A stretch of 64,000 nucleotides of DNA from a phage. The notes under the pieces are model-generated. The model was given only the letters and a program-made list of their open reading frames with translations, was not told where the DNA came from and ran no database searches. Positions 55,480 to 63,356 of this stretch are shown here, one piece after another. Location: assembly GCA_024672275.1 (NCBI GenBank), contig GCA_024672275.1_4536.1; one strand, written 5' to 3'. Position 1 is the stretch's first letter. Every line of letters begins with the position of its first letter. The position numbers were made by a program, and so were the translations under genes.

Positions 55480-56205
55480 TTACTTGTTAATAATACCTGC
55501 GATATTAGGTTTAATGAAACCTGACCACTTCATGATCTTACCTTTATCATCAAAGAACACATACACTTTCTGTTTTTCATTATAAACAGCATGGACACCA
55601 GTGTATGCCCCTTCTGGACGATTGGCATTTCGTTCTTCAATTGCAGCGCATTCTTGTGCAATGGCTGAATCGATATCTGAAGTTTTCCAAGTTTTCAGCA
55701 ACTGTTGTTTAGTTGGATACTTGGAATCATTACTTTTCAATACCTCTTTAATAACTTTCTTTTCTGGATATTTTGAACGGATCAGAGTGTCACGAGACAT
55801 ACGCATAATACCCGCAGCCATTAGCGCCATTTGAACTGGCTCTGTAAATGTTTGTTCCAAAGCATCGAAATCGGTATACACAGTTGGAGTAAAAACATCG
55901 CCTACAGCATAGTCCAAGAAATTCAGCGTATGTTCTTCACCAAAGAACATGTAAGTAAGATAACTGGATACTACAAAAATATCCGCTGCTGCATCCAAGA
56001 GTTCTACATGATCGTTTACTTTCGCGGCTGTTTCATACTCTTTAAGCTCTTCACGAACGAACCCGATTTGGGACATAAATAACTCTTGAGTGAATTCAGG
56101 TTGTTCACCACCTCGTGCTTTGGCATTCCAATCAATTACGTGCTTTGCTGCATTTTTGAAAAATTCAGTATCGAATTTAATATCTTTAAAAAAATTCTCG
56201 ATCAT
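55480..56205 (-). CDS. MazG-like all-alpha NTP pyrophosphohydrolase-like protein (241 aa)
   Basis: EE..E...A......VELLDAAADI pattern typical of MazG/HisE fold (weak); RBS TAAGGAGAAA. Confidence 0.35.
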   Translation of the reverse strand: MIENFFKDIKFDTEFFKNAAKHVIDWNAKARGGEQPEFTQELFMSQIGFVREELKEYETAAKVNDHVELLDAAADIFVVSSYLTYMFFGEEHTLNFLDYAVGDVFTPTVYTDFDALEQTFTEPVQMALMAAGIMRMSRDTLIRSKYPEKKVIKEVLKSNDSKYPTKQQLLKTWKTSDIDSAIAQECAAIEERNANRPEGAYTGVHAVYNEKQKVYVFFDDKGKIMKWSGFIKPNIAGIINK

Positions 56206-56418: not shown

Positions 56419-57048
56419 TTATGTTTTAATCTTGCCAAAATACAATACTTCAGCTTCCTGTCTTGCTGATATAGCATCTTCAATATCAGTAAATGCTCCA
56501 AGACGGATATCTTTTCCTTGATAGGATATACGAGCAATCCATCTTTTTTCTTTCTCGCTCCACACAACACCTGTTTTACCAGAAGTGTTGTTTTTCTGTT
56601 TTCGTGTATTGTATGACTGGACAGACCTTGTAGCCCAGCGACAATTTTCTTTACTGTAATCTTTTTCCGAGTCTATTCTGTCAAGAGATAAACCTTTAGG
56701 TCTATCTCCCATATCCTCAAAAAATGCAGAGAATGAATTTCTCCAAGCATCGCAGACCTTAATACCACGACCACCGTAGTATTCAAAGTGAGTATTGTTT
56801 TTGTTATAGCATCTCCCTAACATAGCTTCCCACGATTTGTATGCTCCTGTTTGTGTTGTTTGCGGTCTACACTTCGAACAATAAGAACTTTTATTCTTCC
56901 TAAGTGTTGCCATAGTTACCGTGCAAATATTACCACAATCACAAGAACAAGTAAAACGTCTTTTGCCATGCTTGTCCCTTTCAATCTCTTCTAAGACAGT
57001 ATAACAACCACATTTCTTACCTACAAGGTCTACTCTCTTGGCTCCCAT
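56419..57048 (-). CDS. homing-endonuclease-like protein with AP2-type DNA-binding repeats (209 aa)
   Basis: N-terminal Cys cluster; AP2-like repeats W.AMLGRC....YGGRGIKVCD.W and GVVWSEKEKRWIARISYQGKDIRLGAFTDIEDA; paralogous to 62751..63356. Confidence 0.5.
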   Translation of the reverse strand: MGAKRVDLVGKKCGCYTVLEEIERDKHGKRRFTCSCDCGNICTVTMATLRKNKSSYCSKCRPQTTQTGAYKSWEAMLGRCYNKNNTHFEYYGGRGIKVCDAWRNSFSAFFEDMGDRPKGLSLDRIDSEKDYSKENCRWATRSVQSYNTRKQKNNTSGKTGVVWSEKEKRWIARISYQGKDIRLGAFTDIEDAISARQEAEVLYFGKIKT

Positions 57049-58145
57049 GTTCCCTCCACCATTTCCCGTAAACGGACACCTGTTGGTTTAGTAGGTATTC
57101 CACCATCAGAAAACTCTTCATACTCAATCTCAACAAATTTACCAATTAACATTTCGGCATTCTCTGCTTTACGATAATTGATAGTCTCATGAGCATCTTT
57201 ACGCATTAAGAATTCGACTACTTTACCATTTTCCATCTCACCTGTCAACACTCCATCGCCATTTTTATCACTTTTTGAATTTGTTACTTTAACTTCAAGG
57301 GTATGGCGAGGCTTACGTTTAATAACGTCATAAGAACGTTTATCAAATTCGTAAACTCCGTGAGCATTACGATATACTACACCTTCAGCTTTCTCAAGTA
57401 AAGCTTTTTCATAGAAAGCATCAAACTGTTCTTGGTTTTCAATATACTCTGTATGAACTACACAAATAAGCTCGTCAAGACCATAATCTTCAACTACTGC
57501 CTTAAGAGCAGCAAGAACATCAACACGTTTTTCAAACGGTAGATCTGGAACTGGAATATCGTATACGTAATAGTTCAGCAAAGGTGTATTTGCATTATGC
57601 TTCTTCCAGGCACTGTTAATTTGTTGTAGACTAAGGACACCTAACCCAGCAAACACTTCACCATCAAGAGGATGACCAACAACTTCACTAATAAAGTTTG
57701 GAATACCTTTCCAATGAGGTGGCAGGTTATACACTTCCCCAGCTTTTGATAAACACTCTCCTTTCATGTTAATCATAGAACGTAACCCGTTCAGTTTGTA
57801 TTGTGCATAACCAGGGAACACAACCCTTTCAGGATAATCTTTATAATCCTGGCATTTCATTGGTGTGGAAGGAACATGGTTTTCAGCTTCTTCTTTTGTT
57901 TTATAATAGCCATTCTTTAACTGTTTTGTCCATTTGGCAAAAGCTTCAAGTTCAGCTTGTTCTTCTGGTGTTGTTTCATTGGAACGACCAATGTTTTTTG
58001 CTTCTGCTGTATAAGATTTTTCTGTGATTTTTCCACCTACCCTTCCATGAGCTACAGTAACAACTGCACCATCTGTATACACTGTCCACTGTTTAAGTTT
58101 TCCTTTTGAATCTTTACCATACAGCGTTTGATTTGTTTGTTGCAT
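57030..58145 (-). CDS. ATP-dependent polynucleotide ligase-like nucleotidyltransferase (371 aa)
   Basis: Motif I variant YAQYKLNGLR (KxNG), motif IV-like EGVVYR, motif V-like KRKPR; internal ATG 58145 with RBS GGGAGGA. Confidence 0.5.
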   Translation of the reverse strand: MQQTNQTLYGKDSKGKLKQWTVYTDGAVVTVAHGRVGGKITEKSYTAEAKNIGRSNETTPEEQAELEAFAKWTKQLKNGYYKTKEEAENHVPSTPMKCQDYKDYPERVVFPGYAQYKLNGLRSMINMKGECLSKAGEVYNLPPHWKGIPNFISEVVGHPLDGEVFAGLGVLSLQQINSAWKKHNANTPLLNYYVYDIPVPDLPFEKRVDVLAALKAVVEDYGLDELICVVHTEYIENQEQFDAFYEKALLEKAEGVVYRNAHGVYEFDKRSYDVIKRKPRHTLEVKVTNSKSDKNGDGVLTGEMENGKVVEFLMRKDAHETINYRKAENAEMLIGKFVEIEYEEFSDGGIPTKPTGVRLREMVEGTWEPRE

Positions 58146-58366
58146 TAGTCCTCCCATTTAAAAACTGAAATTTTCAATCTGTTACACACTTCATCCAAAT
58201 CTGCGTCGAGTAACGTTGTAGATGTTGCCAACATATAATCAATGCTTGTGAAACCTTGCCCTTTGGCATAGTCAAGCATATCTTCATACATATCTTCAAG
58301 ATCACCGTCATCAAAAGTAGCTAGAAAATCCTCGTCCCCACTACGAACATAAAATGCAGTACTCAT
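58145..58366 (-). CDS. hypothetical acidic protein (73 aa)
   Basis: ATG overlapping upstream TGA; ORF track. Confidence 0.5.
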   Translation of the reverse strand: MSTAFYVRSGDEDFLATFDDGDLEDMYEDMLDYAKGQGFTSIDYMLATSTTLLDADLDEVCNRLKISVFKWED

Positions 58367-58554
58367 TCATCTTCATCCCAAGATTCAAAAACGCAGCAAT
58401 CATCGGTTTCTATAATACCAACACGTCCGCAGGTATTGCAAGTGATTTTATCACCGTAGAATAAATAATTTTTATCACCCTCTGTGTTTACAGTTATGTC
58501 ATTACTACCACAAGGGCAAGTCAGCCAACCAACAACAACGATATCTTTTTTCAT
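58363..58554 (-). CDS. zinc-ribbon small protein (63 aa)
   Basis: CPCGSN ... CNTCG; RBS AAGGAGGGATT. Confidence 0.5.
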   Translation of the reverse strand: MKKDIVVVGWLTCPCGSNDITVNTEGDKNYLFYGDKITCNTCGRVGIIETDDCCVFESWDEDE

Positions 58555-58563
58555 AATCCCTCC

Positions 58564-58890
58564 TTAAGCGTTAAGTTCGTTGTTGAGTTCGTAAATCTCT
58601 TCTTGAAGAGCATCAATCTCTTCCTCCAAACGGGAGATCTCTTCTTTTAGATATACCATTTCGGATTCTTTCTCTTCTAATTCATTTTCAAATTTTACTT
58701 TATTAGCCTCATTTTCATAATGCAGTTCAGCGTAATCATCACGCATTTGTTCAATAAGATGAATCAGAGACAAGATATAATTGTCTCCCGTTTCATCACG
58801 CCACTCTTCACCGTGACGGAGAACGGTAATTCGTCCAGTATCTTCATCTAAAATTGTCTCATATTTACGATCATCTGTATAAATCTGCAT
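58564..58890 (-). CDS. hypothetical coiled-coil protein (108 aa)
   Basis: RBS AAGGAGAAATA + ATG; heptad-rich C-terminus. Confidence 0.55.
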   Translation of the reverse strand: MQIYTDDRKYETILDEDTGRITVLRHGEEWRDETGDNYILSLIHLIEQMRDDYAELHYENEANKVKFENELEEKESEMVYLKEEISRLEEEIDALQEEIYELNNELNA

Positions 58891-58899
58891 TATTTCTCC

Positions 58900-59304
58900 T
58901 TATTGAAGTTTAAGTGAACCACGAAGACGTTTCTCTTGCTGATCACGGATATATTGTGGAACCTCGTGAATTGAATCATTACCGTGCCTATTTTCAACAA
59001 CTAAAGAGATAACTTGATAACCAAATTCTTCAGCAAGAGCTAGATAAGGTTTAAGTTCTTTCTCTGTGGTTGAAGTATTAGAAACAATAATCTTGTTAAG
59101 ATTAGATGCCATAGCATCACGAACAATACCCTGACACCATGCGTGTGCTTTACCTACATTTTCTGGCTTCCAATCGTAAACACCACTCTCTGTGTAATGA
59201 TATTGATCTGCCTCACAGATAGGCCAATAACCTTCAGAAATAATTTCTGCTACTGTAGATTTACCAGCACCTGAAACACCACGTAAAATGATAAGTTGTT
59301 TCAT
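58900..59304 (-). CDS. P-loop polynucleotide kinase-like protein (134 aa)
   Basis: Walker A GVSGAGKST at N-terminus as in T4 Pnk kinase domain; directly follows RNA ligase gene. Confidence 0.55.
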   Translation of the reverse strand: MKQLIILRGVSGAGKSTVAEIISEGYWPICEADQYHYTESGVYDWKPENVGKAHAWCQGIVRDAMASNLNKIIVSNTSTTEKELKPYLALAEEFGYQVISLVVENRHGNDSIHEVPQYIRDQQEKRLRGSLKLQ

Positions 59305-60237
59305 TTATCCTCCAAAAAAGTTTTCGATTTTTTCACGTCGCTCTTGCTGATTTAAAGCAGCCCATTGAATCTTCGTAAAATTATTTCGAATCCATTCTAA
59401 CAAAGCGTAATATTCTTCGTCAACCATTTGTTTGGCATTTTTTGGATTATCCCAAATCAGATCCCACTTTTTATCTCCACCGCGCATAAGAAACTTCTTA
59501 GTAAGATAGTGTGGTGATTTAATTTTTAAAAGTAAGTTGAACGGATAGTTTGTTTCACGAACTACAAACCCTTCGTGTTTACAATGTTTAGACATTTCAA
59601 CAACATCTGAAAACTTAACCATTGGATGAACTTCAGGACGCTTAAATTTGGTGACAGAAGCAATTCCATCAAGAGCACCTTCAGGTAACATAAAACTTGT
59701 CCCATCAGGATTTTGAATTCTGGCACCAATTAAGTATGCACCTGGTTCTTCTTCGACAATATGCGGATCAGAAGGATCACAGATTTCAAACAGGAAAGTT
59801 GCTTTTGCACTCTCTGCCCATTTGATGAAATGTTCTATGTCATCGCACTCTGAAACAATATGATTCTTTGCAATACTTGCAAAATCTGATTCAAGGCTTC
59901 CTGTTGTCGATACAATAAGTTGACCTTTATATACACCTACAGAGGCCATAAAACCATTTACTTTACGAACCACATCTACAAGTTCATCCGCTGGTAGATC
60001 TGTGCCATTCTCAAAACGATTAAAAATCTTAGTGAAAGGCCAAATAACAACATTGTCATCAGCATCAACAACGATTCCGCGACATTCTAGAAGACGAGAA
60101 TCAATGCTCCATAAGTTATCCCAGAAAACTTTGTTCTTATACTTAAGAACAGATAGGCCAGAATACTCTCCTTCTTTATATGTTTTCTTATGAACTAAAC
60201 CTTTTTCAACCAAATCGTCGCAATTAAATTTAGTCAC
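59305..60237 (-). CDS. RNA ligase, T4 Rnl1-like (310 aa)
   Basis: Colinear with T4 RnlA N-terminal half: LLECRGIVVDADDNVVIWPFTKIFN (cf. [29 protein letters not shown]), motif I KVNG, EGFVVRE, LLLKIK; GTG start with RBS AAAGGAGAG. Confidence 0.75.
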   Translation of the reverse strand: MTKFNCDDLVEKGLVHKKTYKEGEYSGLSVLKYKNKVFWDNLWSIDSRLLECRGIVVDADDNVVIWPFTKIFNRFENGTDLPADELVDVVRKVNGFMASVGVYKGQLIVSTTGSLESDFASIAKNHIVSECDDIEHFIKWAESAKATFLFEICDPSDPHIVEEEPGAYLIGARIQNPDGTSFMLPEGALDGIASVTKFKRPEVHPMVKFSDVVEMSKHCKHEGFVVRETNYPFNLLLKIKSPHYLTKKFLMRGGDKKWDLIWDNPKNAKQMVDEEYYALLEWIRNNFTKIQWAALNQQERREKIENFFGG

Positions 60238-60238
60238 A

Positions 60239-60790
60239 TTACTCTCCTTTGATTATTTTGTGATGGTCTACAGTCACGATATCTCGTTTACCCATCATAG
60301 AAATTATCTCATCAAAATGCAAGATTTTTCCGTGTGCATCCCAACCCACATCTAACATTTTACCATAAGCTTCATCAGGGAAAGATCCGTGGGAATGCCC
60401 GTGTAGCATGATTGATCCACGCCCTTGTTTATTCCAGGAGGCTATAGGGTAATGGCTTAAGACGAAGAACAGCTTCTGATATTTCACTTCGTCATAATAC
60501 ACCACTTCTCCATACTCTGCAAGCACTTCTCGGTGTTTGCTGTAATCATGGTTCCCAACACAGTAGGTGATATCTCCTTGGAGACGGGAAGCAATTTTAC
60601 GGGTATCTTCTTCAGTTCCGAAACAGAAGTCGCCCAAATGCCACATCTTAACACCAGGAGTAGTAGCACATTTGTTCCATGCTTCGATCAAGGCTTCTGT
60701 CATGTGGTCCATATCTTCCCACGGACGATATTCAGGAGCAAACTCTCGAATACGTTTATGCATAAAATGCAAATCGCTTGTAATAAACAT
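60239..60790 (-). CDS. calcineurin-like metallophosphoesterase, candidate polynucleotide 2',3'/3'-phosphatase (183 aa)
   Basis: MPE motifs SDLHFMH, HLGDF, GNHD, LHGHSHG; immediately upstream of RNA ligase and kinase. Confidence 0.6.
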   Translation of the reverse strand: MFITSDLHFMHKRIREFAPEYRPWEDMDHMTEALIEAWNKCATTPGVKMWHLGDFCFGTEEDTRKIASRLQGDITYCVGNHDYSKHREVLAEYGEVVYYDEVKYQKLFFVLSHYPIASWNKQGRGSIMLHGHSHGSFPDEAYGKMLDVGWDAHGKILHFDEIISMMGKRDIVTVDHHKIIKGE

Positions 60791-61146
60791 TAGTATAATC
60801 CCTCGCTAAATAATTCATGGTCGTGACCATTACGCTCATGGTCGATCTGGTCCGCATTTTCCGCGATGATGTAAGCATCCGCACGACTCCACCAATTGTA
60901 ATACTGATCGATAAAGCCTTGATTATCTGGTGTGCACAAAGTTTTGTTGATTACACCTGCTTCTTTCAACACGCTTAACTGTGCATATAGTACAGGATTT
61001 GCATGTCGAACACAAGGAATAATTAACTCTTCACCATTATTCAAAATATACTTATTCGCAGCACAGACGATAACACGTTGCGCATAATGACCCTCACCAA
61101 TCCAGGTAAGAGGTTGGTAACAAATGTTGTTTTCAATACCACTCAT
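60790..61146 (-). CDS. hypothetical protein (118 aa)
   Basis: RBS GAGGAGGATT + ATG; ORF track. Confidence 0.55.
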   Translation of the reverse strand: MSGIENNICYQPLTWIGEGHYAQRVIVCAANKYILNNGEELIIPCVRHANPVLYAQLSVLKEAGVINKTLCTPDNQGFIDQYYNWWSRADAYIIAENADQIDHERNGHDHELFSEGLY

Positions 61147-61296
61147 TGTTTCCTAATCCTCCTCTCTTAAGTTATCCTCGAAAAAACTAGTGTCTGGAAG
61201 TAAAAGATCATTACTTGTGTCGGGCCAATCCTCTTCTTCTCGGTAGATAAAGTAACCTTCGTCCTCTTCTTGTTCCGACCAAACCGAATGATGCAT
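61147..61296 (-). CDS. hypothetical acidic small protein (49 aa)
   Basis: RBS TAAGGAGAAAAC + ATG about 61296; fills gap between flanking genes; below ORF-track cutoff. Confidence 0.4.
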
Positions 61297-61305
61297 GTTT
61301 TCTCC

Positions 61306-61650
61306 TTAGTAGTGCACACGAATCATTTTAATACCATAACGCAGCATGGATTCTTTTGCAAGCATGAATTTATCCCCAGCGGCGGGATTAGAAGTATGCA
61401 CGAAAATGGTAGGTGAACCAAAGCAAGGTTTACCAAACGCCAGAAGTTCTTCCAGGTGCAGGAAAACATCATACCCATCTTGGTCTGACTCCATACCTAA
61501 ATCATTGTCAAAAGACCACTCGGTTACTCTTCGATACAGTTTAGCAGGATCATTGAGAAAGGTCATAGCTTCTTGTGACGTTTTAAACCAAATTGCGTCT
61601 TCCTGTCCATAGTCGGCTGGGTTCCGCATATCATCTATCCAAACTTTCAT
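61306..61650 (-). CDS. hypothetical protein (114 aa)
   Basis: RBS AAAGGAGG + ATG; ORF track. Confidence 0.55.
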   Translation of the reverse strand: MKVWIDDMRNPADYGQEDAIWFKTSQEAMTFLNDPAKLYRRVTEWSFDNDLGMESDQDGYDVFLHLEELLAFGKPCFGSPTIFVHTSNPAAGDKFMLAKESMLRYGIKMIRVHY

Positions 61651-61660
61651 ATAACCTCCT

Positions 61661-62131
61661 TTAAGCTGGCATGATCAAAAAAGAACTTTCCACTTCAAAA
61701 TGCCAATCATCAACAAGCCCTGATTCCCAATCTTTCTCTTCATGGAAAGAGCAAATCCAACGGTACATACCTGGCGGTGTATTCTCAACATCTTCTGGCA
61801 ACCCATAATCCAAAGCTGTCTTACCGTTCTCTGTAAAACCAGGATGGAGATTAGGAGCTTTCAGTACAGAAACCATACCTCCAACATCCACAGCTACGAT
61901 CCACTCTGTCATGTATGGGCTGTCATATTGAGGCTCATCAGAACCTACCTCAACAGCCTCTGTGCGTAAGATGATAATAGCCTGCTCTGTGATTGGGGCT
62001 TTGACAATATACCCGTGATCCTCAAAAAGATCGATAACCTCGAACTCATCGCCGTTTTCTACACCATAACTCTTATTCAAAGAGATAAACTTCGGGTTAT
62101 CATCGTAAGCTTTAGTTACTTTAATTCTCAT
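61661..62131 (-). CDS. hypothetical protein (156 aa)
   Basis: RBS GAAGGAGG + ATG; ORF track. Confidence 0.55.
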   Translation of the reverse strand: MRIKVTKAYDDNPKFISLNKSYGVENGDEFEVIDLFEDHGYIVKAPITEQAIIILRTEAVEVGSDEPQYDSPYMTEWIVAVDVGGMVSVLKAPNLHPGFTENGKTALDYGLPEDVENTPPGMYRWICSFHEEKDWESGLVDDWHFEVESSFLIMPA

Positions 62132-62513: not shown

Positions 62514-62791
62514 TTTGCATTCCTCTTGTTGTTGATAACATCCATAGCAGTATATGGTTTATTAGTGCCATGATACTCCAGAATCATTGGAGAGCCTTCT
62601 TGCACTACTTCAAAGATACCATAAACAGAACTTTCAGCAAATACCATTTGCTTCGTGCCTTCATCGTTTACAACGAGAGAAAACTTCTTGCCTGTCCCGT
62701 TGAGGATCTCATATTTCTTGCCAGCAGTGAATAATCCAGAGTACCACTCATTATCTGTTGCTTTTACACACTTCAGGAAAGTCTTGATCAT
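62510..62791 (-). CDS. hypothetical protein (93 aa)
   Basis: RBS AGAGGAGATAAA + ATG; ORF track. Confidence 0.55.
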   Translation of the reverse strand: MIKTFLKCVKATDNEWYSGLFTAGKKYEILNGTGKKFSLVVNDEGTKQMVFAESSVYGIFEVVQEGSPMILEYHGTNKPYTAMDVINNKRNAK

Positions 62792-63356
62792 TTCTTTTTA
62801 TCTCCTCTTTTAATCTATCTACTATACGAACATCATAGACGCCCTCTGTATACATGTCAATAACTTCTTCAAGATAAACTTTTTTAGCTTTTCTGTAAGC
62901 TTCTTTTGCTGCCTCTTCTGTAGAAAAACTTCCAAGATAGAAGCCCTTACCGAACTTACGGATGCTCGCTTGGTAGACCTTATCTCTCTTGTGATATGTA
63001 ACACCCCTATAAGATGTCGAACCCATAAGTGCAAAATTCACATACTCTGGTATAAAGACACACGTGCTTGGTGAATAAACTTTAGAATCGGAAAGAAAAT
63101 CCTTATCTAAAACTTTACCTTCCCAAGATTGACTCTCCATCCAGTTTTTGAAGTTAGAGAAGACCAACCATTCATCACAAACTTGAGCATTTTTGTATGC
63201 TGGCATCCTTGCCAACTGCTTCTCACAGTAACACCTACGCAACATATCCGTCCATCTCTCGTAATAAGGGCATGTCTTCCTTTTACCATCTTCTCCCCAA
63301 AAAGTAACTGGAACTTTTGAATCATTTATTCCTTTTCCGAACACTAGTTTTTTCAT
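62751..63356 (-). CDS. homing-endonuclease-like protein with AP2-type DNA-binding domain (201 aa)
   Basis: AP2-like segment YRGVTYHKRDKVYQASIRKFGKGFYLGSFSTEEAAKEAY; W..MLRRCY box shared with 56419..57048. Confidence 0.5.
   Translation of the reverse strand: MKKLVFGKGINDSKVPVTFWGEDGKRKTCPYYERWTDMLRRCYCEKQLARMPAYKNAQVCDEWLVFSNFKNWMESQSWEGKVLDKDFLSDSKVYSPSTCVFIPEYVNFALMGSTSYRGVTYHKRDKVYQASIRKFGKGFYLGSFSTEEAAKEAYRKAKKVYLEEVIDMYTEGVYDVRIVDRLKEEIKRNDQDFPEVCKSNR

Follow-up and report, generated by a model that had tools for sequence, protein, structure and literature searches.

Do three small, contiguous genes of a coliphage form a complete system for healing and sealing broken RNA, and to which of the known systems would it be related? 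The question is raised by a stretch of 64,000 nucleotides (the window; assembly GCA_024672275.1, contig GCA_024672275.1_4536.1), which is from a phAPEC8-like myovirus of Escherichia coli (genus Phapecoctavirus, Stephanstirmvirinae). Over bases 58500-61700, the window shares 99% identity with phages ESCO37, ECO340P1, Schickermooser and ESCO13. A first-pass annotation had described a metallophosphoesterase, an Rnl1-like RNA ligase and a P-loop kinase, encoded in this region, as a split Pnkp-type system. We conclude that this cassette is probably a co-transcribed module for RNA end-healing and end-sealing. As a kind, the system is not new: T4 and Pnkp-Hen1 are known examples, comparative genomics predicts such modules in phages (PMC7824862 section 3.4.9), and the genes have names in GenBank. 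What is new is the definition of the module with its conserved linkage, the full set of fusions, a bacterial version linked to Ro60, the recognition of the phosphoesterase as a separate family and the intermediate Rnl1/Trl1 character of the ligase.

Gene arrangement, linkage and fusions

The cassette consists of three contiguous open reading frames (ORFs) on the minus strand, in the order phosphoesterase, ligase, kinase (Table 1), and the tight junctions described earlier can be read in the sequence. The TAA of the phosphoesterase gene is followed by one base and the GTG of the ligase gene, which has an AGGAG Shine-Dalgarno sequence 7 nt upstream. An overlapping ATG reads directly into TGA, so that GTG is the usable ligase start. 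At the second junction, the kinase ATG, closely preceded by GGAGGA, follows immediately upon the ligase TAA. The three genes are translationally coupled. Promoter-like and terminator-like sites in the cassette occur at the numbers expected from shuffled sequence, with no internal signal in the block, which is consistent with co-transcription. The same three coding sequences are annotated with identical boundaries in Schickermooser, ESCO37 and ESCO13, and the Schickermooser record names them "putative phosphoesterase", "putative RNA ligase" and "putative polynucleotide kinase". Each of the three families has one copy within the window.

The association of the three families was analyzed in 80 viral loci, which were collected by scanning viral contigs and whose ligases have 38-87% identity to the query (neighbours within 6 kb). 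The kinase family is found near the ligase in 67 loci, the phosphoesterase in 63 and both in 53; where at least 5 kb is available on each flank, both partners are present in 40 of 54 loci. The order phosphoesterase-ligase-kinase occurs 33 times and kinase-ligase-phosphoesterase 18 times. Kinase and ligase are a single ORF in 11 viral loci. With fusions excluded, the kinase directly adjoins the ligase in 28 loci, as does the phosphoesterase (also 28). Random placement in genomes of ~150 kb would put roughly 8% of genes in such an interval; the linkage is not due to chance.

Scanning one genome per species yielded 43 bacterial loci, mostly from Neisseria, Eikenella, Kingella, Moraxella, Cardiobacterium and Campylobacter concisus. 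The phosphoesterase is within 6 kb of the ligase in 36 of these. A kinase-ligase fusion of ~490 residues is encoded in 35, in 31 cases with the phosphoesterase downstream, and the kinase is fused to this RNA ligase in 46 viral and bacterial loci. The ligase family is large: among 1.84 billion representatives, 7560 relatives are found at E<=1e-3, 3006 at E<=1e-10 and 476 at E<=1e-30. The best 150 include 23 proteins of 700-812 residues, and the three that were scanned (P0408, P0436, P0464) consist of an AAA_33 kinase, a Metallophos domain and a ligase of this family. The first two domains of P0436 are closest to those of Pnkp from Clostridium thermocellum (CthPnkp; 4gp6 at 4e-13, 4j6o at 3e-14); its gene is on a bacterial-looking contig (L129) and has no Hen1 neighbour. 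Ligase-kinase fusions (P0387 and P0409, 444-477 residues) and a phosphoesterase-ligase fusion (P0493, 545 residues) were also found. Thus, the gene order is shuffled, and the ligase is found fused to the kinase (in either order), to the phosphoesterase and to both (kinase-phosphoesterase-ligase). These fusions strongly indicate that one substrate is served by all three activities, in support of the wording "split Pnkp-type system".

One bacterial locus, from Neisseria sp. CP9 (L102, 1850-8824), was examined in detail. It contains, in this order, a YrlA Y-RNA-like gene (RF02553, 89.7 bits against a gathering score of 69), a gene for Ro60 (TROVE/vWA), a gene for a protein of 195 residues, the kinase-ligase fusion (490 residues) and the phosphoesterase. 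It looks like a cellular Ro60-linked RNA repair locus which has an ATP-dependent ligase in place of RtcB. The tRNA-Gln calls near Neisseria loci proved to be ordinary tRNA genes rather than Y-RNA modules. Joint action of the three enzymes is shown by linkage and fusion, while RNA as their substrate is supported by the fold class of the ligase and by the Ro60/Y-RNA context of this locus.

The predicted end-healing enzymes

The kinase matches PF13671 (AAA_33) at 3e-10, phrog_2071 at 2e-56 and phrog_505 (polynucleotide kinase) at 8e-8. The best solved relatives of a profile from 33 diverse homologs are Pnkp1, Mucorales RNA kinases, T4 Pnk and CthPnk, and the predicted fold best matches the polynucleotide kinases of C. 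thermocellum and T4. The P-loop, D33 (corresponding in position to the general base of T4 Pnk) and the lid residue R106 are invariant in this profile. With P-loop, catalytic aspartate, lid arginine and Pnk fold all present, the small P-loop kinase of the first reading is corroborated, and the enzyme is predicted to act on 5'-OH polynucleotides.

The phosphoesterase matches phrog_547 at 1e-55 and reaches 24.2 bits with Pfam Metallophos_2, under the cut-off of 27. The binuclear metallophosphoesterase motifs DxH, GD, GNH(D/E), H and GHxH are present. In 36 diverse members of the family, the metal ligands H8, D54, N80, H81, H113, H132 and H134 are invariant and D6 is nearly so (at least 90%). The family profile (A4) matches PDB entry 1xm7 (Aquifex aq_1665) at 2e-24, with GpdQ next at 1e-3, and it also weakly matches YfcE-like proteins. 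It has no match in PDB to the CthPnkp phosphatase (4j6o) or to lambda phosphatase (1g5b), and no A4 domain was detected in any of the best 150 ligase representatives, the trifunctional ones included. The designation as calcineurin-like metallophosphoesterase is thereby upheld. That the phosphatase is "as in bacterial Pnkp", as was also claimed, holds at the superfamily level only: judged by its profile matches, the protein belongs to the aq_1665/COG4186 family and not to the Pnkp/lambda-phosphatase family. It is predicted to be a 2',3'-cyclic phosphodiesterase / 3'(2')-phosphatase.

The RNA ligase

The ligase matches PF09511 (RNA_lig_T4_1) at 4e-15 and phrog_562 at 2e-70. A search of PDB sequences with the single sequence gave no match, and a family profile was required. 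With a profile of 40 homologs, T4 Rnl1 is the sole match among PDB sequences (1.6e-10, over residues 48-238), and no match to Trl1 appeared when the E-value limit was raised to 10. In hhalign comparisons, the family aligns to T4 Rnl1 with 96.4% probability (E 1e-9, residues 29-272 against 33-266) and to the ligase domain of Trl1 (Trl1-LIG) with 84.6% probability (E 7e-6). When compared in three dimensions, however, the predicted fold does not favour T4 Rnl1 over fungal Trl1-LIG, the two being equally close. The yeast Trl1 query was validated by a 2e-175 match to Trl1-LIG of Candida glabrata; PDB-derived sequences were used for the profile comparison.

The nucleotidyltransferase motifs I (KxxG), III (E), IV (EG) and V (KxK) are all present. 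Residues K92-V-N-G95, E151, E222-G223 and K238-x-K240 align to K99, E159, E227-G228 and K240/K242 of T4 Rnl1, so that the nucleophile is indeed found in the KVNG motif (pattern KxNG) to which it had been assigned. Residue conservation was judged in 121 sequences from the loci and 150 family representatives. Apart from alignment gaps, R53, K70, K92, G95, E151, E222, G223, K238 and K240 are invariant; R53, K70 and F72 align with T4 Rnl1 and are conserved. These motifs place the protein in the covalent nucleotidyltransferase / ATP-dependent RNA ligase superfamily.

It is the C-terminal domain by which families of RNA ligases are defined. In T4 Rnl1, this domain (about residues 255-374) confers tRNA specificity (PMC6379707), while the Rnl6 family (Trl1-LIG) has a distinctive one of five helices. 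The signature C-terminal domain of T4 Rnl1 was looked for in the cassette ligase and was not found; the corresponding region is short and all-helical, and might be a counterpart of the five-helix domain. The colinearity with T4 Rnl1 that had been claimed therefore applies to the adenylyltransferase domain but does not extend to the C-terminal tRNA-specificity domain. Other positions point to Trl1. N94 and H159 are invariant and align, according to hhalign, to the Trl1 asparagine and to His193/His227. The first helix that follows motif V has two invariant basic residues, K248 and R252; the latter is at +12 from the motif V lysine (a spacing like that of Trl1 Arg337), the former one turn earlier. 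This region falls outside the hhalign match, and the equivalence to Arg334/Arg337 is one of spacing, not of superposition. The Trl1 motif Ia lysine falls in a gap of the alignment. The ligase is intermediate in Rnl1/Trl1 character, with a Trl1-like signature.

Proposed mechanism and role

From homology and intact active sites, we infer the following chemistry. The substrate would be RNA with a 2',3'-cyclic phosphate and a 5'-OH at the break, the ends left by a transesterifying RNase. The metallophosphoesterase would open and remove the cyclic or terminal phosphate, possibly assisted by a cREC protein encoded nearby (see below). The Pnk-type kinase (P-loop, D33, R106) would then phosphorylate the 5'-OH with an NTP as donor. 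Finally, the ligase would be adenylylated on K92 and would pass the AMP to the 5'-phosphate (AppRNA), upon which the ends could be joined. The order of these steps is presumed, as are the substrates and the biological target. By analogy with T4, where Pnkp and Rnl1 act against PrrC, the most likely role would be to undo RNA cleavage by host abortive-infection nucleases or toxins. The RNA would probably be tRNA, and by this analogy alone, it may be an anticodon nuclease that cuts it.

Several observations weigh against this reading. The C-terminal region of the ligase after motif V has ~66 residues, as compared to the ~120-residue tRNA-specificity domain of T4 Rnl1, and the absence of the T4 tRNA-recognition domain weakens the case for tRNA as target. 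The position of the essential motif Ia residue K119 of T4 Rnl1 is occupied by T112, and throughout the family by Thr or Ser. The phosphoesterase family is without a characterized member, and its nearest solved structure, 1xm7, is that of a structural-genomics protein of unknown function. Literature searches turned up no biochemical or genetic study of any cassette member, and none was found that combines Phapecoctavirus or phAPEC8 with "RNA ligase". Pnk-type enzymes accept DNA too, as T4 Pnk does, and an ATP-dependent DNA ligase is encoded close to the RNA ligase here and in 35-43 of the 80 viral loci.

In view of this nearby DNA ligase, a role in DNA-end processing was considered. The kinase and the phosphoesterase might clean 5'-OH/3'-phosphate DNA ends for the neighbouring DNA ligase, or the Rnl1-like enzyme might itself act on DNA. 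A weak match of the phosphoesterase to the ligase-associated PdeM model (E 0.004, 16.5 bits, cut-off 150) would fit. In the proteins examined, however, kinase and phosphoesterase are fused to the RNA ligase and never to a DNA ligase, the DNA ligase gene is usually 1-3 kb off rather than adjacent, and the bacterial locus examined in detail adjoins Ro60 and Y RNA; we regard this role as very unlikely. It is also unlikely, to the point of being hardly credible, that the ligase-like protein is mainly a tail-fibre attachment factor after the model of T4 gp63, as is implied by the PHROG and GenBank product names ("RNA ligase and tail fiber protein attachment catalyst"). This name has been transferred from T4. 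The gene is in the early nucleotide-metabolism arm, away from structural genes, it is coupled or fused to kinase and phosphoesterase, its family is found in bacterial chromosomes and the protein lacks the C-terminal half of the T4 enzyme. A different use of the same chemistry, namely general RNA quality control or processing instead of counter-defence, is possible although not likely. The module might, for example, mend RNA cut by RNases of the phage or of toxin-antitoxin systems, or handle tRNAs that the phage itself encodes. Homologs on bacterial chromosomes, with one locus beside Ro60 and a Y-RNA-like gene, point to stress RNA repair rather than phage defence, and both the missing tRNA-specificity domain and a cluster of 10 tRNA genes ~5 kb away in close relatives are in line with this. 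On the other hand, T4, the only phage precedent with known biology, is a case of counter-defence, and frequent neighbours of the cassette are conflict-type genes (NAD salvage, Macro, SIR2, cREC).

A further alternative concerns the chemistry itself. The phosphoesterase might only open the cyclic phosphate to 3'-OH,2'-PO4, as in Trl1 systems, and sealing would then leave a 2'-PO4 at the junction. The ligase would sense the 2'-phosphate via N94, H159, K248 and R252, and the mark at the junction might block re-cleavage or be removed by host KptA with NAD+. Motif I is KxNG as in Trl1, the invariant H159 falls on Trl1 His193/His227, and R252 and the invariant K248 are placed as described above. In Trl1, a His-Arg-Arg triad enforces the requirement for 2'-PO4 (PMC11404444, PMC6379707), and the CthPnkp metallophosphoesterase cleaves the P-O3' bond and yields 2'-NMP (PMC2190708). 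Related phages have NAMPT, phosphoribosyl pyrophosphate (PRPP) synthetase, Macro, SIR2 and cREC genes as neighbours, several of them NAD-related; NAD-salvage genes, however, are common phage cargo for other reasons. A plant ligase needs 2'-PO4 without those arginines (PMC12440814), the sequence is nearer to T4 Rnl1 than to Trl1, and the match to the two Trl1 arginines is by spacing. Moreover, a search for a Tpt1/KptA homolog was negative for the window and for all of the 80 viral and 43 bacterial loci. Phage Tpt1 genes do exist, but not in Phapecoctavirus, nor beside these families in two phages checked: tblastn with KptA (a query which retrieved annotated 2'-phosphotransferases) matched 98 phage records, with no Phapecoctavirus among them. 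Two genes near Tpt1 in Klebsiella phage FBKp24 (311 and 134 residues), ligase-kinase-like by size, proved unrelated, and the result was the same for Ea35-70. We consider this route improbable. The same applies, if anything with slightly more doubt, to the broader proposal that the ligase family is the prokaryotic counterpart of fungal/plant Trl1, with a 2'-phosphate pocket formed by N94/H159/K248/R252 and an internal 2'-PO4 after sealing. RNA end-healing followed by sealing, with counter-defence as the probable role, is the reading that we prefer.

Neighbouring genes

Table 1. The cassette and other features of the window (aa, amino acids; coordinates refer to the window).
Feature	Coordinates	Strand	Remarks
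Binuclear metallophosphoesterase, 183 aa	60239..60790	-	ATG start; aq_1665/COG4186 family; predicted 3'-end healing
ATP-dependent RNA ligase, 310 aa	59305..60237	-	GTG start; Rnl1-type adenylyltransferase domain; nucleophile K92
Pnk-type P-loop kinase, 134 aa	58900..59304	-	ATG start; predicted 5'-OH polynucleotide kinase, 5'-end healing
cREC protein, 114 aa	61306..61650	-	PF20274 cREC_REC; probable accessory end-healing component in this phage clade
118-aa protein	60790..61146	-	phrog_839; coupled to phosphoesterase gene; module membership uncertain
ATP-dependent DNA ligase	57030..58157	-	PF01068 at 2e-9; phrog_114 at 1e-74
MazG-like nucleotide pyrophosphohydrolase	55480..56205	-	PRA-PH at 3e-6; phrog_671
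HNH/AP2-type homing-endonuclease-like gene	56419..57048	-	
HNH/AP2-type homing-endonuclease-like gene	62751..63356	-	
SIR2-family protein, 271 aa	29634..30449	-	

The gene two positions upstream of the phosphoesterase codes for a cREC protein (PF20274 at 7e-17, 62.3 bits against a gathering cut-off of 27); it was absent from the first-pass annotation. The cREC family was defined by Iyer et al. 2021, who predicted cyclic-phosphate processing and reported operonic linkage to RNA ligases (PMC7824862). It occurs in 10 of the 80 viral loci, all closer relatives, and is directly between ligase and kinase in six of these (L005-L009, L015). The cREC protein probably belongs to the repair module, its activity being predicted. 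The gene in between, for the 118-residue protein, shares one base with the phosphoesterase start (TAATG). Neither Pfam nor NCBIfam, searched as local copies, gave a match for its product, even a weak one. PF26092 is present in all 120 homologs listed, and the label "anti-restriction nuclease" is given in some of their records. Linkage of this family to the ligase is rare (3 of the 80 viral loci).

Downstream of the kinase, three small genes precede the ATP-dependent DNA ligase gene. The end of the latter is overlapped by 19 nt by one of two homing-endonuclease-like genes, which is part of a segment where different sequence replaces two small Schickermooser genes; both homing-endonuclease-like genes are absent from Schickermooser and ESCO37. 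The MazG-like gene recurs near the cassette in 12 related loci.

Further neighbours in the 80 viral loci are NAMPT (33), PRPP synthetase (30), Macro (13) and SIR2 (11), and an Rv2179c-like 3'-5' exoribonuclease is found in 18. The window contains no NAMPT, PRPP synthetase or Macro gene, while DNA ligase and SIR2 are present. The SIR2-family protein matches the SIR2 neighbours of related loci (phmmer, 1e-111), and its gene is near a sign change of the GC skew (~29-30 kb), which is a coding-strand switch.

An Rfam scan of the whole window found nothing, so that the window is without a Y-RNA-like or tRNA gene. In close relatives, a tRNA cluster is located just past the window end. In ESCO13 (NC_047770.1, 57537-59549; L083, 26902-28914), it is ~5 kb upstream of the cassette on the opposite strand, and its 10 genes are for Met, Arg-tct, Ser-gct, Asn, Thr-tgt, Gly-tcc, Gln-ttg, Pro-tgg, Ile and Met. 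tRNA genes are within 6 kb of the ligase in 13 of the 80 viral loci, an uncontrolled count which is not used as evidence.

Significance

To our knowledge, T4 is the only phage whose RNA repair is understood from experiments. Defences that cleave tRNA or other RNA are now known to be common. The cassette is a compact and widespread alternative, with a stand-alone minimal Pnk, an uncharacterized metallophosphoesterase family, a short ligase and sometimes cREC. It occurs in therapeutic-candidate coliphages as well as in Neisseria chromosomes, and its ligase family has about 3000 phage and bacterial representatives at E<=1e-10. Characterization would assign a function to a phosphoesterase family whose sole solved structure is of unknown function, would test the predicted cREC activity and would reveal the basis of substrate choice in a ligase without the tRNA-recognition domain of T4.

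If the Trl1-like residues bind 2'-phosphate, this would also bear on a puzzle in E. coli. Why such bacteria keep Tpt1/KptA without a known source of 2'-PO4 RNA is an open question (PMC6097658). Should the ligase be a counterpart of Trl1, with an internal 2'-PO4 left by sealing, 2'-phosphorylated RNA would arise naturally in bacteria like E. coli. The 2'-phosphate could be a substrate of KptA/Tpt1, or a mark of resistance to re-cleavage, as Hen1 methylation is.

Comparison with known systems

In T4, Pnkp and Rnl1 counter the anticodon nuclease PrrC. Kinase and phosphatase are separate proteins in the cassette, and a binuclear metallophosphoesterase is found in place of the HAD/DxDxT phosphatase of T4. 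T4 Rnl1 has 374 residues including the tRNA-specificity C-domain, whereas the cassette ligase is shorter and lacks it. Motif I is KxDG in T4 Rnl1 and KxNG in the cassette ligase, which has a Thr in place of the essential lysine K119. The ligase scores 24.7 against the NCBIfam equivalog model for T4 RnlA, far from the cut-off of 242.

The bacterial Pnkp-Hen1 (C. thermocellum) and Pnkp1-Rnl-Hen1 systems combine the same three activities and have, like the cassette, a metallophosphoesterase as 3' healing enzyme. The cassette kinase is closest to CthPnk and Pnkp1, and natural fusions of kinase, metallophosphoesterase and ligase carry the cassette's own ligase family. The cassette differs from these systems in the phosphoesterase, which is a lambda-phosphatase-like domain in Pnkp and of the aq_1665/COG4186 type in the cassette. 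As for Hen1, the annotations of ESCO13, Schickermooser and ESCO37 show no methyltransferase among the genes that flank the cassette, and none was found when 13 ORFs around the cassette (a set without the smaller ones upstream of 62131) were scanned with Pfam.

Fungal and plant Trl1 (Rnl6, LIG-KIN-CPD) resembles the cassette in several respects. Its ligase fold is the best or equal-best match, motif I is KxNG, and the cassette ligase appears to share the His after motif III, basic residues after motif V and a short all-helical C-terminal region. The ligase-kinase order of Trl1 is also that of the fusions P0387 and P0409, and the kinase profile also matches the stand-alone RNA kinases of Mucorales, a split version of Trl1. 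By sequence, however, the ligase is less similar to Trl1 than to T4 Rnl1. Trl1 uses a 2H cyclic phosphodiesterase, while the cassette has a metallophosphoesterase and perhaps cREC. Trl1 systems also have Tpt1, which was not found with the cassette in any of the loci searched.

Bacteria such as Salmonella have RNA repair operons with Ro60 (Rsr), Y RNA and RtcB (cf. PMC7790460). The phage window contains neither Ro60 nor a Y-RNA-like gene. The Neisseria sp. CP9 locus, in contrast, likewise pairs a Y-RNA-like gene and Ro60 with RNA end-joining enzymes. While the known operons seal by RtcB, the Neisseria homologs of the cassette are predicted to do so by an ATP-dependent heal-and-seal route.

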